Assembly (NCBI GenBank): GCA_045656865.1
Contig: JAZOSB010000025.1
Coordinates: 8,032 to 72,031 of the forward strand
DNA length: 64,000 bases
Direction: 5' to 3'
Origin: Clostridia bacterium
Lineage (GTDB): Bacteria > Bacillota > Clostridia > UMGS1883
Part shown: piece by piece, positions 23,731-64,000 of the stretch
Numbering within the stretch: the first letter of the stretch is position 1
Layout: each line of letters begins with the position of its first letter
Position numbers and translations under genes: made by a program
The notes under the pieces: generated by a model
The model's input: only the letters and a program-made list of their open reading frames with translations
Databases searched by the model: none
Told to the model about the DNA's origin: nothing

Positions 23731-24316
23731 CCGCTGAGTAGCGGAGGACGTTGTACTTTTGGGAGCCAAAAGTACCAAAAACGCGGGGGTTCCGATTCCC
23801 CCGCACCCCTGAAACGGCCTCGCAGGGGCGTAATGTTTTTTGGGCGTGGTTTTCTTTTACTGTATTGTTTTCATTTTTGCAAATTTTCCGTCTTTGAACC
23901 GCCGGCTTTAAGGCAACACTCAGTTGCCTGTTCGCCTGAAATTGCTCGCCTGCAGAGGAAAATGATGCTCGCAATTTCACGGTAGCCGACAGAAAATTTG
24001 CAAAAACCGTAGTTTAGTGCTTGGGAAGAATAGTCAAGTTTTGAGAAATTCTTTGTTGACTGGCGTAAAAATCGCTCGTATCAACTTCCTCTGCCGACGA
24101 GCGATTTTTAGTCCGCAAGGAAATAAGTTTTCCTTTTAGGACGGCGACACCAAAACAAATAATTTCGAAAAACAAAACCATCTTTGTTATTAAGGACAAG
24201 TTTTTGCTTTCTTACGCCCCTGCGAGGGCGTTGAGGGGTGTGGGGAGAATCGCAACTCCCCACCGCTTTTCGCCATTTTGGCGTTCAAAATGGCAAAGGT
24301 CTCTGCGACTCCGCAG
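23731..24316. repeat. Hyper-structured non-coding locus bounded by 80-nt imperfect inverted arms
   Basis: The arms 23753-23833 and 24212-24294 are reverse complements, with a perfect 16-bp core CCTCGCAGGGGCGTAA/TTACGCCCCTGCGAGG. Interior stems are TTTTTGCAAATTTTCCGTC/GACAGAAAATTTGCAAAAA, GAAATTGC/GCAATTTC, GGCAAC/GTTGCC and the 12-bp AAAAATCGCTCG/CGAGCGATTTTT. Confidence 0.75.
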
Positions 24317-48161: not shown

Positions 48162-48191
48162 TTGATTTTCACTTATTCTTAGTATTATAAT
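48162..48191 (+). promoter_or_regulatory. SigA-type promoter reading into the repeat-rich region upstream of potA
   Basis: TTGATT, an 18-nt spacer, then TATAAT (a second overlapping TATAAT at 48191-48196). There is no ORF downstream for about 860 nt. Confidence 0.55.
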
Positions 48192-48246
48192 ATAATAAGC
48201 AAATGATTTCTTTGGAATCTTAATGCGAATATAGGACCACTTCCTT

Positions 48247-48523
48247 CAACCATTACAGAATCATCCGAATCCGCCTTAAACCACGAAATTCAGGCATCTT
48301 TTGGCTTGTTGTCCTTGAAAGGCGTCAGCCTGCCTTCGTCCGCCGCGCCAAAATCTGCACAAAATTTCGGGAGTTTAAGGTTCGAAGAATTTTTTGCGAA
48401 CTATTTTTCTGCCGATACAAGGCAAAAACGTATTCCATACTGTCGTATGGGATAGGTTTTTAACGACGTAGTGACAAAAAAGAGAAAGCAAAAAACGTAA
48501 TTCGGATAATACTGTAATGGTTG
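48247..48523. repeat. Nested-palindrome intergenic element, copy B1 (277 bp)
   Basis: Termini CAACCATTACAG.../...CTGTAATGGTTG pair. With copy C it shares the blocks ATCCGAATCCGCCT, AAGGCGTCAGCCT, CCAAAATCT, ACAAGGCAAAAACG and AGAGAAAGC in the same order. Confidence 0.8.
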
Positions 48524-48640
48524 CGGAGTCGAGGCCATACGGACAGCCGGGTCCACTGCCGATTGGCGGTTTTCCGCCTTTATTGATTAAATTAGTTTTA
48601 TAAGTTGGTTACTTTATAACCGAAATGCGTAATTACGCTG

Positions 48641-48798
48641 AGCCGAACAGTAATAATCCAAACCGTGTTTTTTGCTTCCTATTTTTCGCCACTACGGCGT
48701 TAAAAGACTTGCATATACTGACGCCTTTCAAGGACGACAAATTAAAAAATGCCTAAATTTCACCGCTTGAGGCAGGTTTGGACTGTTACTGTTCGGCT
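48641..48798. repeat. Nested-palindrome element, copy B2 (158 bp, inverted and internally deleted)
   Basis: Termini AGCCGAACAGTAATAATCCAAACC / GGTTTGGACTGTTACTGTTCGGCT. Its reverse complement contains TTGTCGTCCTTGAAAGGCGTCAG (B1 has TTGTTGTCCTTGAAAGGCGTCAG) and the ...TTTTAACGCCGTAGTGGCGAAAAA... block. Confidence 0.75.
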
Positions 48799-48884
48799 GA
48801 CTTGTGAAATGGTCAATAAGAGTAGTGACTCTGTATGTCCAATATCTTAGATTTCCTTAGGGAGTCTGTCTTTTTTGAGATATT

Positions 48885-49051: not shown

Positions 49052-50539
49052 ATGGCAAACAACGTAATCATCGAGCTTAAAAATGTATCCAAGCATTTCG
49101 GGCAGACGTATGCTGTGGAGGATTTCAATCTTTATGTCAAGAAAGGGGAATTTGTAACCTTTTTGGGGCCCAGCGGCTGTGGAAAGACTACCACCCTCCG
49201 AATGATTGCAGGATTCGAGCTTCCTACGGGCGGACAAATTCTCTTAAACGGAGAGGATATTTCCCTGCTTCCGCCGTACAAACGCCCCGTAAATACAGTT
49301 TTCCAGAAGTATGCTCTTTTTCCTCATATGGATGTGTATGACAACATCGCATTCGGTTTGAAGCTGAAGAAAATTCCTGACGGGGACAAAATGAGAAAGC
49401 TTACCAAAGAGGAAATTGACAAAAAAGTCAGGAAAGCTCTTAAAATAGTTGACCTTGAAGAGTACGAAAACCGTGATATATCCACTCTTTCAGGCGGTCA
49501 GCAGCAGAGAATTGCCATTGCCCGTGCGATTGTAAACGAGCCTGAAATTCTTCTCCTTGACGAGCCTTTGGGCGCTCTCGATTTGAAAATGAGAAAGGAT
49601 ATGCAGCTTGAGCTTAAGGAAATGCACAAAAAGCTCGGCATTACCTTTATATATGTAACCCACGACCAGGAGGAGGCACTTACCCTCTCCGACACGATTG
49701 TGGTTATGAAGGACGGTATGATTCAGCAAATCGGCACCCCTGAGGACATTTATAACGAGCCTAACAATGCCTTTGTTGCGAACTTCATCGGTGAAAGCAA
49801 TATTTACAGCGGTACGGTGACAGGTGACAAAAAAGTCAGATTTATTAACCACGTTTTCGATTGTGTTGATGAATTTCCCAAAAATGAAAAGGTCGACGTT
49901 GTTATCCGTCCTGAGGATGTGCATATTACTGATGCATCGAGTGGTATGGCAAAGGGAAAGATTGTCAGCAAAATTTTCAAAGGAATCCACTACGAATATA
50001 TTATGATGGTCGGCAGAAACGAGCTTGTCATAGTTGATACAAGGGATTTGAATGTGGACGAAACCTACGGCTTTGACATTGAGCCTGATGGTATTCACAT
50101 TATGAAAAAGGAGCTTACCGCCAATATTTATAACGATGCCTACATTGACAAGGAAAACCGTGTTGTTATTTCAGAATGTCCCTTTGAATGTGACATTACG
50201 ACCCTTGTGCAGGGCTCAATCGTTGACAGTGAGGGCTATGTTGTAGGTCCTGACGGTACACGTTATGATTTTACCGATGCGGATGTCCGTGCGGAGATAG
50301 GACTCAAGGATATTGAAATCCTTGACGACGAGGAGGCAGGTATCGTAAAGGGTGAGATTGTTTCCATTATATATAAGGGTGACCATTATCAGCTTACAAT
50401 CCGTACTCCCGAGGATGAGGATTTCGTTCTGGATACGGAATACACATATGACGAAAACGACCTTGTAGGTCTTAATGTACGGTCTCAGGACATAAAGCTT
50501 ACATTGAAAGGAGAGGCGAAGAAGTATGCGAAAAAATAA
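49052..50539 (+). CDS. potA: Spermidine/putrescine ABC transporter ATP-binding protein with duplicated C-terminal TOBE-like domain
   Basis: Walker [10 protein letters not shown], signature LSGGQQQR and Walker B LLLDEP. At 495 aa it is about 120-145 aa longer than usual PotA. The ATG at 49052 follows AGAGGTG. Confidence 0.9.
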
Positions 50540-53732: not shown

Positions 53733-53817
53733 TGGTGGGAGAGGATGGATTCGAACCATCGAAGTCAGTGACAACAGATTTACAGTCTGCCCCCTTTGGC
53801 CGCTCGGGAACTCTCCC
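53733..53817 (-). tRNA. tRNA-Tyr (GTA), class II with long variable arm, CCA encoded
   Basis: In the minus sense: GGGAGAG TT CCCGAGCGGCCAAAGGG G GCAGA CTGTAAA TCTGT TGTCACTGACTTC GATGG TTCGAAT CCATC CTCTCCC A CCA. Confidence 0.92.
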
Positions 53818-53893
53818 TGGAGCTGGTGATGGGACTCGAACCCGCAACCTGCTGATTACAAATCAGCTGCTCTGCCAATTGAGCTACACCAGC
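53818..53893 (-). tRNA. tRNA-Thr (TGT), CCA encoded
   Basis: In the minus sense: GCTGGTG TA GCTC AATTGGCA GAGC A GCTGA TTTGTAA TCAGC AGGTT GCGGG TTCGAGT CCCAT CACCAGC T CCA. As read, the T-stem has one G-U and one C-A mismatch. Confidence 0.85.
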
Positions 53894-56107: not shown

Positions 56108-56323
56108 ATGTTTAACAGAAGAAAAATTAAAGAATCCGACAGTTGCCGTTATTGCAAAAACCTTGTGAAAAATGGTGAAGAATACACCTGCAAATATGCA
56201 AAGGATGAATTTAAGCTCAGCGGAATCTGTAAGAAATATGTGTTTAATCCCTTTGCACCCAGAGTACCCAGAGTTCGCAATTTGGACACAACAATGTTTG
56301 ACCCACTCGACTTTAAGATTTAG
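56108..56323 (+). CDS. Small 4-Cys protein (71 aa) of unknown function
   Basis: CRYC...C(K)...C spacing (CxxC-x12-C-x13-C) and a basic N-terminus. It starts 4 nt after the preceding stop, which suggests co-translation. Confidence 0.5.
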   Translation: MFNRRKIKESDSCRYCKNLVKNGEEYTCKYAKDEFKLSGICKKYVFNPFAPRVPRVRNLDTTMFDPLDFKI

Positions 56324-56596
56324 CCGAAAGAGGATAATCCGAATCCGCCTGAAACGGTGTTATTTCGGTATATTTCGGCTTGTCATCTTTGCAAGGCGTC
56401 AGCCTTGCTGCATCTTCCGCACCAAAATCTACACTAAATTCCATCCGTTTCAGGTCGCAGAATTTTAAAAGTGCAGATTTTTGGTTTCACAAGGCAAAAA
56501 CGCAGGAAATACTTTGTGTATTTCCGAGTATTTTAACACAGAGAAAGCGAAAATCTGCCTTTTAAAATCGAGGCTTGGATTATTCTCTTTCGGCTA
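56321..56596. repeat. Nested-palindrome intergenic element, copy C (276 bp)
   Basis: Termini TAGCCGAAAGAGGATAATCC / GGATTATTCTCTTTCGGCTA. Internal pairs are CCTGAAACGG/CCGTTTCAGG and CCAAAATCTACAC/GTGCAGATTTTTGG, plus the hairpin GCAAGGC-GTCA-GCCTTGC. It spans the region from the upstream stop codon to the luxS SD. Confidence 0.8.
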
Positions 56597-63671: not shown

Positions 63672-64000
63672 TTAATTTTCACTGAGTTTACTGAGGAAGT
63701 GCTTCGTTTTGTCATTCTTGGGGTTGTCAAGCACCTCTTCGGGAGTGCCGTCTTCAAGCACAACTCCGTCTGCCATAAATATAATTCTGTCTGCAACATT
63801 GCGTGCAAACTCTATTTCGTGTGTTACAATTACCATAGTGGTCTGCTTCTTTGCCAAATCACGGATTACACGGAGAATTTCACCCGTAAGTTCGGGGTCA
63901 AGAGCACTTGTAGGCTCGTCAAAGAACAAAACCTTGGGATTAAGTGCCAATGCGCGGGCAATAGAAACTCTCTGCTGCTGACCGCCCGAAAGCTGACAGG
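63672..64000 (-). CDS. Amino-acid ABC transporter ATP-binding protein (N-terminus outside window)
   Basis: The signature region through the C-terminus is visible ([34 protein letters not shown]). It is GlnQ-like. Confidence 0.88.
   Translation of the reverse strand, partial: CQLSGGQQQRVSIARALALNPKVLFFDEPTSALDPELTGEILRVIRDLAKKQTTMVIVTHEIEFARNVADRIIFMADGVVLEDGTPEEVLDNPKNDKTKHFLSKLSEN

Follow-up and report, generated by a model that had tools for sequence, protein, structure and literature searches.

A 277 bp, two-armed palindromic repeat of gut Oscillospiraceae and Ruminococcus: probable copies of an apparently undescribed MITE

INTRODUCTION

A 277 bp element, here called B1, lies in the window (the whole 64 kb stretch of DNA that was analysed), its 5' end, CAACCATTACAG at 48247, pairing with its 3' end, CTGTAATGGTTG finishing at 48523. 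An initial annotation described B1 as a fold-back element with pairing ends, a description with which the coordinates, the terminal pairing and fold z-scores of -7.2 and -8.3 agree, and offered two explanations for it: a secondary structure selected in RNA or DNA, or a palindromic mobile element of the MITE or REP kind. Bacterial MITEs have been defined by terminal inverted repeats, 5'-TA-3' termini, duplication of the target, the occurrence of filled and empty sites, and stable stem-loops (PMC2229807). The question raised by this locus is which of the two explanations accounts for B1 and its relatives. We consider B1 and two further copies, B2 and C, to be probable representatives of a bacterial MITE, a DNA transposon of the non-autonomous kind with a length of about 277 bp; it belongs to a large, new and apparently undescribed MITE family in gut Oscillospiraceae and Ruminococcus.

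RESULTS

Three copies in the window

Three copies are found within the 64 kb window, with the following features.

48247-48523, + strand: B1, full-length copy, 277 bp, Y-shaped (sequence, fold, nhmmer 204 bits)
48247-48270 with 48500-48523: B1 terminal stem (fold)
48273-48381: B1 arm 1, tip AGGC-GTCA-GCCT
48390-48495: B1 arm 2, tip TTCCATAC-TGTC-GTATGGGA
48639-48800, - strand: B2, deletion derivative; core 48642-48797, with TGA on either side
56321-56596, + strand: C, full-length copy, 276 bp (sequence, fold, nhmmer 268 bits)
56321-56342 with 56575-56596: C terminal stem (fold)
56347-56455: C arm 1 (fold)
about 56457-56574: C arm 2 (fold)
56321-56322 and 56595-56596: TA flanking C, around the core GCCGAAAG...CTTTCGGC

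In a repeat search the B1 region matched 56331-56455, with 74% over 125 nt, and also 48638-48798 as an inverted repeat; judged by their sequences, B1, C and B2 are homologous. The fold of B1 and C is a Y and not one hairpin, a terminal stem of 22-24 bp closing two arms of 106-118 nt each. Both copies fold far better than dinucleotide shuffles, z on the two strands being -7.2 and -8.3 in B1, -10.1 and -10.0 in C. In B2 everything between the loops of the two arms is missing; what is left is the terminal stem together with the 5' half of arm 1, which runs as far as the GTCA loop, and the 3' half of arm 2. B2 matches positions 2-82 and 198-275 of the nhmmer profile. Five collinear blocks had been proposed as common to B1 and C, and four of these (ATCCGAATCCGCCT, AAGGCGTCAGCCT, CCAAAATCT and ACAAGGCAAAAACG) occupy homologous columns of the family alignment; the fifth, AGAGAAAGC, is present in both copies yet offset by about 14 nt, and is not homologous.

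A large, modular family

The initial annotation did not recognise the family and proposed that further copies be sought and that the element be compared with Rfam. A scan of one genome per prokaryotic species with the arm-1 core GTNNTCYTTGMAAGGCGTCAG as the search pattern gave at least 120 loci in at least 78 species-level assemblies (assemblies counted by accession prefix). Among the matches listed, the hosts are named as Ruminococcus, Acutalibacteraceae, Oscillospiraceae, Ructibacterium, Congzhengia or just Clostridia, and their sources are the guts of humans, ruminants and other animals. Complete genomes with copies include CP091729.1, NZ_CP162391.1 and NZ_CP162392.1. Searching with an nhmmer profile built on 24 copies gave, among the matches listed, 53 copies of full length (273-281 bp), along with many truncated, tandem and head-to-head (inverted) abutting copies. 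Each full-length copy has a near-perfect terminal stem (terminal inverted repeats) of 22-28 bp, and no ORF is conserved within the element, which is non-coding. To be retrieved, a genome locus had to match the arm-1 pattern exactly, which inflates the conservation of the arm-1 block in this sample; four copies found by the profile only keep the block with one to three changes. No covariance model of Rfam 15 matched the elements at the gathering score, and relaxing the threshold to E <= 5 brought up nothing above chance level; B1, C and related elements thus have no family there, the sole real Rfam match being a flanking ldcC motif (see below).

Parts of the element also occur elsewhere. The arm-1 core lies inside a single-hairpin element of ~160 bp with other ends (ATACTAATACC...GGTATTAGTAT), the arm-2 tip alone is found in a palindromic element of ~200 bp on bacterial-looking human-faecal contigs of ~57-61% GC, and a relative of the window organism (locus L231) carries another Y-shaped element with a different arm 1. 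Since the arm-1 core and arm-2 tip recur in other elements and a Y-shaped element exists with a different arm 1, the family is modular. Scans of viral contigs returned no match either to a two-block pattern or to the arm-1 core, and the family is therefore chromosomal and not phage-borne. In blastn searches there was no match in plasmid records and none between B1 and phage records; the arm-2 tip of C, and nothing else, matched UNVERIFIED human-faecal 'Bacteriophage sp.' scaffolds, which by their sequence look like bacterial DNA carrying a different palindromic element of ~200 bp. The family is not ubiquitous: luxS-carrying metagenome loci of other gut taxa (LuxS 58-69% identical), 840 kb in all, contained no copy. 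A search of the literature turned up general MITE surveys, none describing this 277 bp repeat family; a large survey names Ruminococcus and Faecalibacterium just in passing, and the 277 bp family is absent from it (PMC11602168).

Covariation is real and shared by both strands

Paired arms had been said to co-vary between copies, the example being CCTTAAAC/GTTTAAGG in B1 and CCTGAAAC/GTTTCAGG in C. These fall in one column pair of a 24-sequence alignment, in which UA occurs 12 times, GC 7, AU 3 and CG 2, and across that alignment 42 of the 65 pairs predicted by RNAalifold have compensatory changes on both sides. Observed values compare with those of shuffled alignments and of alignments with pairing partners slid by 1-3 columns as follows.

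Pairs changed on both sides: observed 42; shuffled 23.5 +/- 2.3; partners slid 16-24
Cells paired: observed 94.2%; shuffled 80.6%; partners slid 33-55%
Cells changed on both sides: observed 196; shuffled 59; partners slid 24-56

Not one of 500 shuffles attains any observed covariation measure. The covariation is real and far above chance, and the caution that it might be accidental, resting as it then did on three copies aligned by eye, no longer applies. The same comparison bears on another alternative, that the similarity and pairing arose by chance or reflect a local duplication peculiar to the window. Loci numbering at least 120, in at least 78 assemblies, together with fold z-scores of -7 to -10 and 0 of 500 shuffles reaching the observed covariation, make this alternative extremely improbable.

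The terminal stems, which had been noted to differ between copies while remaining self-complementary, behave in this way across the family. They are very diverse, beginning for instance TAGGGTGACAG.., TAGCCGAAAG.., TAAGCACACGAG.., TAGGCATAAGAG.. or CAACCATTACAG.., and in the outer 12-15 bp of the terminal repeats one subfamily is very unlike another, even in one genome; the hairpin tips are far more conserved than these outer ends. Strings resembling GGTTCGAATCC in some terminal stems led us to consider a tRNA-like origin, which was dropped as there is no T-arm pairing.

Strong covariation, a tight length of 273-281 nt and conserved loop sequences are also what might be seen in a structured non-coding RNA, or in an RNA-level cis element (a stabiliser, processing site or terminator), whose fold is selected, the copies then being paralogous RNA genes or domesticated modules. 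The majority of copies sit in spacers that are transcribed, often adjoining a ribosome-binding site, and the arm-2 tip is similar to a weak intrinsic terminator that would work in both directions (A-tract, hairpin, T-tract), both of which are in line with such a role. An RNA should, however, prefer G·U to A·C on its own strand. A count over the RNAalifold pairs (G·U:A·C of 163:34 on the plus strand and 43:249 on the minus strand) was discarded because it is circular, the plus prediction picking G·U and the minus prediction picking A·C. In its place, each arm was aligned to its own reverse complement with both transition mismatches scored equally, which gave the following counts.

All regions: G·T 357, A·C 377
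Terminal stem: G·T 58, A·C 103
Arm 1: G·T 175, A·C 142
Arm 2: G·T 124, A·C 132
Terminal stems, second alignment: G·T 56, A·C 70
27 copies between co-directional genes, oriented by transcription: G·T 190, A·C 199

G·T and A·C are balanced, as the initial annotation had held in finding no consistent strand preference, and G·U is not preferred to A·C on either strand or on the transcribed strand. Orientation is likewise near random, 35 copies being sense and 22 antisense between co-directional genes among the matches listed. Neither the mismatch counts nor the orientations give any sign of a strand-specific RNA or of a strand-specific single-stranded DNA form, and the covariation is not evidence for a strand-specific RNA. 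These counts, the lack of a matching Rfam family even at permissive thresholds and the lack of a conserved promoter or terminator at the ends weigh against an RNA-level function for the fold, which we think quite unlikely. The balance of G·T and A·C instead suggests a cause at the level of DNA, possibly a requirement for symmetric ends or correction of arm against arm in fold-back intermediates.

Filled and empty sites

The window LuxS has no exact match on record, and close relatives were found through LuxS proteins 91-95% identical to it, giving 13 loci (L219-L231). A profile search of these loci found no full copy, and the sole match, a weak one to arm 2 in L231, belongs to the divergent Y-shaped element of that genome. 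Copies of the family are present or absent at orthologous sites of close relatives.

The site of C is empty in 13 of 13 relatives (AAGATATAAGGTGATTTTATG). The relatives read ...GACTTTAAGATA-TA-AGGTGATTTTATG (AAGATA-TA-AGGTG) and the window reads ...AAGATT-TA-GCCGAAAG...CTTTCGGC-TA-AGGTGATTTTATG, the single TA now standing on both sides of the element. C was inserted in the spacer that runs from the stop codon of a 71-aa ORF to the luxS ribosome-binding site, and the TAA stop of that ORF is replaced by a TAG made of the 5' TA and the first G of the element. This empty site fits a 2 bp TA duplication; it fits equally well the insertion, with no duplication, of an element that carries one TA.

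The site of B2 is empty in L219 and L220 (ACGC-TA-ACTTG) and filled in the window (ACGC-TGA-GCCGAAC...GTTCGGC-TGA-CTTG). Read in the orientation of the element, TTA is set against TCA...TCA, for which a 3 bp TCA repeat is a better fit than a 2 bp one, needing fewer changes. A full-length orthologue of B2 occurs in a more distant genome (L065:5550-5823). Recombination may explain this distribution, because around B2 the window is nearer to L065 (93%) than to L219 (84%). The site of B1 is uninterrupted in L220, and L065 has nothing there; L219 has a 19 nt remnant, AACCATTA|TGTAATGGTTG, made of the outer 9-10 bp of each end. L219 and L220 are 92-94% identical to the window in the upstream flank and have no full B1 or B2. 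Relatives whose LuxS is 93-95% identical do without any of the three window copies, which is a further point against an RNA-level function.

Over the family, both flanks are available for 39 copies among the matches listed. Of these 39, 33 have TA on the 5' side, 33 on the 3' side and 30 on both, and the bases outside the TA vary between copies. Many copies begin at a stop codon or finish 12-21 nt before a start codon, positions that are expected if the TA in spacers between stop codon and ribosome-binding site is one of few tolerated targets. This is a multi-copy family with no protein of its own, inserting at TA in short intergenic spacers and having TA on both sides afterwards.

Decay products and conserved tips

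The same deletion is found in B2 and in an unrelated copy (L041), sequence being joined in each directly after the GTCA tetraloop of arm 1 and the TGTC tetraloop of arm 2. A third copy (L096) has lost arm 2 by deletion between the short direct repeats TTTTCGG and TCTTCAG, as seen relative to its orthologue L052, and in L219 the centre of B1 has been deleted. Such deletions are expected where a DNA hairpin or palindrome is cut, or is skipped by slippage in replication (palindrome instability). The copies would then be decaying as DNA hairpins typically do, and decay by deletion counts against an RNA-level function.

The loop-to-loop joins also raise the possibility that the element is moved as folded single-stranded DNA by a structure-specific enzyme, either of the HUH/Y1 type (RAYT, IS200/IS605) or an attC-type integrase. 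An enzyme that reads conserved tips and overall shape would explain covarying stems and fixed loops. Structure is conserved over the whole element while terminal stem sequences are very diverse; tip modules are kept in elements with unrelated termini (arm 1 in that of ~160 bp, the arm-2 tip in that of ~200 bp); and the two independent deletions join exactly after the GTCA and TGTC tetraloops, although host hairpin nucleases and end joining can also give a loop-to-loop deletion. An identical 5'->3' motif, TCATCTT or TCGTCCT, stands beside the arm-1 tip on both strands and, as read from the alignment, changes in parallel between subfamilies. Movement of this kind predicts an excess of G·T on the active strand, however, and none is seen; TA ends and long perfect inverted repeats are foreign to IS200/IS605, PATEs and REP elements, and genes of the Y1 or RAYT-like kind do not recur in the neighbourhood of the copies. 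We therefore consider it unlikely.

The tip modules themselves comprise an arm-1 core, TTGTCNTCYTTGMAAGGC-GTCA-GCCTT, and an arm-2 core, AAGGCAAAAACGCAG-stem-loop-stem-CGAGTATTTT. They recur with unrelated termini and in different architectures in Ruminococcus, Acutalibacteraceae and Oscillospiraceae, and a second group, in gut contigs of ~57-61% GC, shares the arm-2 tip only. It is tempting to speculate, although we would put this forward as doubtful, that the modules are functional units, either sites for a structure-specific enzyme on extruded hairpins or regulatory modules that the host has recruited and the element has spread. Were they enzyme sites, the two identical loop-to-loop deletions would be the footprint of the enzyme, and with functional tip modules of either kind the element would stand for a new mechanistic class among bacterial repeats.

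B1 lies within an ldcC leader

Upstream of a potABCD-like polyamine transporter operon, whose leader B1 and B2 share, the following features surround B1.

48162-48191: sigma-70-like promoter, upstream of the ldcC motif
48234-48246, + strand: 5' half of ldcC/SpF59 P1, GGACCACTTCC (48234-48244), plus two loop bases; target context, not element
48524-48562, + strand: 3' half of the ldcC/SpF59 motif (RF02440), Rfam match above gathering score
49043: start of a PotA-like ABC ATPase gene, of the potABCD-like operon downstream of the ldcC motif

In the window, Rfam places ldcC/SpF59 at 48504-48562 (43.2 bits), wrongly assigning the 5' half to the 3' arm of B1, and the uninterrupted motif in L220 scores 67.6 bits. 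From its sequence context, B1 splits the two halves of ldcC P1, the insertion lying in the apical loop of P1. The leader of a PotA-like transporter operon is one reported context of the ldcC motif (PMC5737381). The minimum-free-energy fold runs the terminal stem of B1 straight into P1, so that B1 lengthens this helix and leaves it unbroken, an arrangement that speaks for a role in RNA.

DISCUSSION

Of the two explanations first offered for B1, the mobile element is favoured by the empty sites, the TA termini, the dispersed copies and the lack of strand bias. Small size, non-coding repeated sequence, terminal inverted repeats, TA termini and filled and empty sites are all MITE properties found here. 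In other ways the element departs from the usual picture. Classical bacterial MITEs are <200 bp, whereas this one is larger at 277 bp; a usual MITE has conserved ends, whereas here, conversely, the outer ends are variable and the hairpin tips conserved; and the element is Y-shaped, with pairing maintained in the internal arms and not only at the ends. The last point counts against the MITE reading, as binding of the ends alone by a transposase leaves the covariation of the internal arms unexplained.

Our current working hypothesis is that the MITE would be mobilized in trans, the gene for its transposase lying at another place in the genome. The likeliest enzyme would be of the TA-duplicating IS630/Tc1-mariner type, the second candidate being an IS5/Harbinger-like, TNA-duplicating one; the 2 bp TA duplication of IS630/Tc1-mariner fits C exactly, and B2 fits 3 bp (TCA) with fewer changes. 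The enzyme probably reads a moderately conserved subterminal motif, ATCCGAACC...GGTTCGGAT, and not the variable outer ends. The nested palindromes (a terminal stem and two arms) would be a property of the DNA, their complementarity perhaps kept by the need for competence in transposition or by arm-to-arm correction in fold-back intermediates. Because it folds on itself, the element would be tolerated in transcripts in either orientation. The loci around the copies contain no transposase, no longer element with the same ends and no recurring gene family, about 1.2 Mb of loci searched contained no solitary terminal repeat, and a Pfam search of 54 window ORFs gave housekeeping families only among the 25 listed of 98 matched families.

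Comparison with known repeats suggests that the closest analogues are Correia, RUP and ERIC, with CIR sharing the two-arm layout. Like the present element, Correia/NEMIS elements of Neisseria are non-coding, multi-copy and intergenic, with long terminal inverted repeats and TA ends (PMC2229807), occur at sites filled or empty between strains and have size variants differing by an internal segment (PMC2229807); they are described as co-transcribed with their neighbours and as forming stable stem-loops, and a further likeness is that a transposase is named for neither (PMC2229807). Correia elements are, however, single hairpins of 107-155 bp with conserved terminal repeats, belong to Proteobacteria and have no sequence similarity to the element described here, which is a two-armed Y of ~277 bp with variable outer ends and conserved tips in Oscillospiraceae and Ruminococcus hosts. 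RUP of Streptococcus pneumoniae, an IS630-Spn1-dependent MITE, resembles it in TA insertion, terminal inverted repeats, intergenic location, multiple copies and a Firmicute host (PMC2229807), but is 107 bp long with ends that match an IS630-family insertion sequence, and no matching one was found in the loci here. ERIC/IRU and YPAL of enterobacteria are also imperfect palindromes in transcribed intergenic regions, conserved across genera (PMC2229807), for which orientation-dependent effects on mRNA stability have been proposed (PMC2229807); they differ in being single hairpins of 127-167 bp. CIR of Caulobacter and Brucella has two long inverted repeats forming two arms and a conserved motif in the terminal loop (PMC2229807), but is without terminal inverted repeats and its loop motif is the methyltransferase site GANTC, whereas here a terminal stem of 22-28 bp closes the arms and the loops are GTCA and TGTC/TTTGT.

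REP elements and REPINs (RAYT, Y1) are, like ours, intergenic palindromic repeats with covarying stems and frequent inverted pairs. In contrast, REPs measure 20-40 nt, have a conserved GTAG head and no TA ends, and go with a RAYT gene flanked by REPs, none of which is seen here. Membership of the REP/REPIN-RAYT system was rejected, the unit here being ~277 bp with TA ends and no gene family recurring near the copies. Derivation from IS200/IS605 as a PATE, in which hairpins are subterminal and strand-specific and there are neither terminal inverted repeats nor a duplication, was rejected too, given the long terminal inverted repeats and the absence of strand asymmetry.

This is a large, apparently undescribed repeat family in abundant and poorly studied gut and rumen Clostridia (Oscillospiraceae, Ruminococcus). 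In metagenome-assembled genomes a copy is often found where a contig ends, and the family therefore probably breaks assemblies. A 277 bp repeat of this kind could be mistaken for a non-coding RNA, and strong base-pair covariation alone is no proof of a functional RNA; what tells a mobile palindrome of DNA apart from an RNA gene is the symmetry of G·T and A·C, together with empty sites. With insertions in the gap between stop codon and ribosome-binding site and in the ldcC leader loop, the element may alter expression between close strains.

Two examples of positions at which a copy would be tolerated in a transcript are the gap that follows a stop codon, ahead of the next ribosome-binding site, and the ldcC leader, inside a hairpin loop. 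Two features of the family are unusual: the conservation of tip modules despite unrelated termini, and the location of B1 inside the apical loop of the ldcC RNA.

Insertion of an element copy into an ldcC/SpF59 leader

The copy B1 (48247-48523, forward strand) of the MITE-like family lies within an ldcC/SpF59 RNA motif (RF02440), which it cuts into two parts (48234-48246 and 48524-48562), the insertion point being the apical loop of hairpin P1. The motif, with B1 inside it, forms part of the leader of the polyamine transporter operon, for which the following features were placed in the window:

48162-48191, sigma-70-like promoter
49043, start of the potA-like gene of the polyamine transporter operon

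The motif scores 43.2 bits in the window, compared with 67.6 bits at L220, a locus from a relative in which it is whole. At L219, from another relative, a 19-nt palindromic remnant occupies the P1 apical loop where the window has B1, and the conserved core of the motif is entirely missing from a third such locus, L065.

A 95-nt inverted repeat, 71% complementary (49487-49581 and 63898-63992), has one arm within the potA-like ABC ATPase gene, and probably reflects a putative paralogous ABC ATPase on the opposite strand, close to the window end. A tRNA gene pair sits between the pot operon and an ornithine/arginine decarboxylase-like gene:

53736-53893, reverse strand, two tRNA genes side by side (Rfam tRNA, 53 and 67.6 bits)

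Abutting copies and loop-to-loop deletions

Copies belonging to different subfamilies often abut directly, inverted or in tandem, with the junction TA common to both, as at these loci outside the window:

L040, 2992-3537, abutting copies
L107, 5749-6297, abutting copies
L129, 3843-4387, abutting copies
L048, 1127-1675, abutting copies
L074, 2-418, abutting copies

In the window, B1 and the deleted copy B2 represent a looser form of this arrangement, with a gap of 115 bp. Such pairs suggest either insertion into or beside existing copies or the use of shared hot spots.

An identical internal deletion is present in B2 (junction at 48718) and in L041 (309-465), with the sequence joined directly after the loops of arm 1 (GTCA) and arm 2 (TGTC). 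That two independent copies are joined at the same loop positions suggests that extruded hairpin tips were cleaved, or that template switching took place there. The arm-1 tip hairpin is flanked by one heptamer, read 5' to 3' on both strands (family alignment A2, columns ~64-72 and ~92-100), some subfamilies having TCATCTT...TCATCTT and others TCGTCCT...TCGTCCT; the two heptamers vary in parallel as a direct repeat, and base pairing accounts for this only in part.

Other palindromic elements

Palindromic elements of ~200 bp were found in L001 and L002 (MT838915 and MT837840) and in the IMG/VR contigs L003-L018, at a density of up to three copies per 10 kb. Their ends are TTAGGCAATACCGCATAATTC...GAATTGTGCGGTGTTGCCTTA, and they have only the arm-2 tip (CGCAG-stem-TTTGT-stem-CGAG) in common with copy C. 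The database entries for the carriers are UNVERIFIED 'Bacteriophage sp.' scaffolds, but the two that were read completely (~57-61% GC) look like bacterial DNA.

Another Y-shaped element, ~285 bp long and bounded by GCGGCGTTCACATAGGGAT...ATCCCTATGTGAACGCCGC, is present in a relative of the window organism (L231, 8545-8830). It has the topology of the B1/C family, and one of its hairpins is arm-2-like, but its arm 1 differs; the spacer that holds it measures only 60 nt in another relative (L229).

The window itself contains another nested-palindrome element of ~540 bp (~23752-24295), unrelated in sequence to B1 and C, with terminal arms of 49 nt that are 78% complementary. An 82%-identical copy in L065 (6100-6662) has a different context, adjoining the B2 orthologue, and L110 holds a partial copy; this element probably belongs to a separate mobile repeat family.
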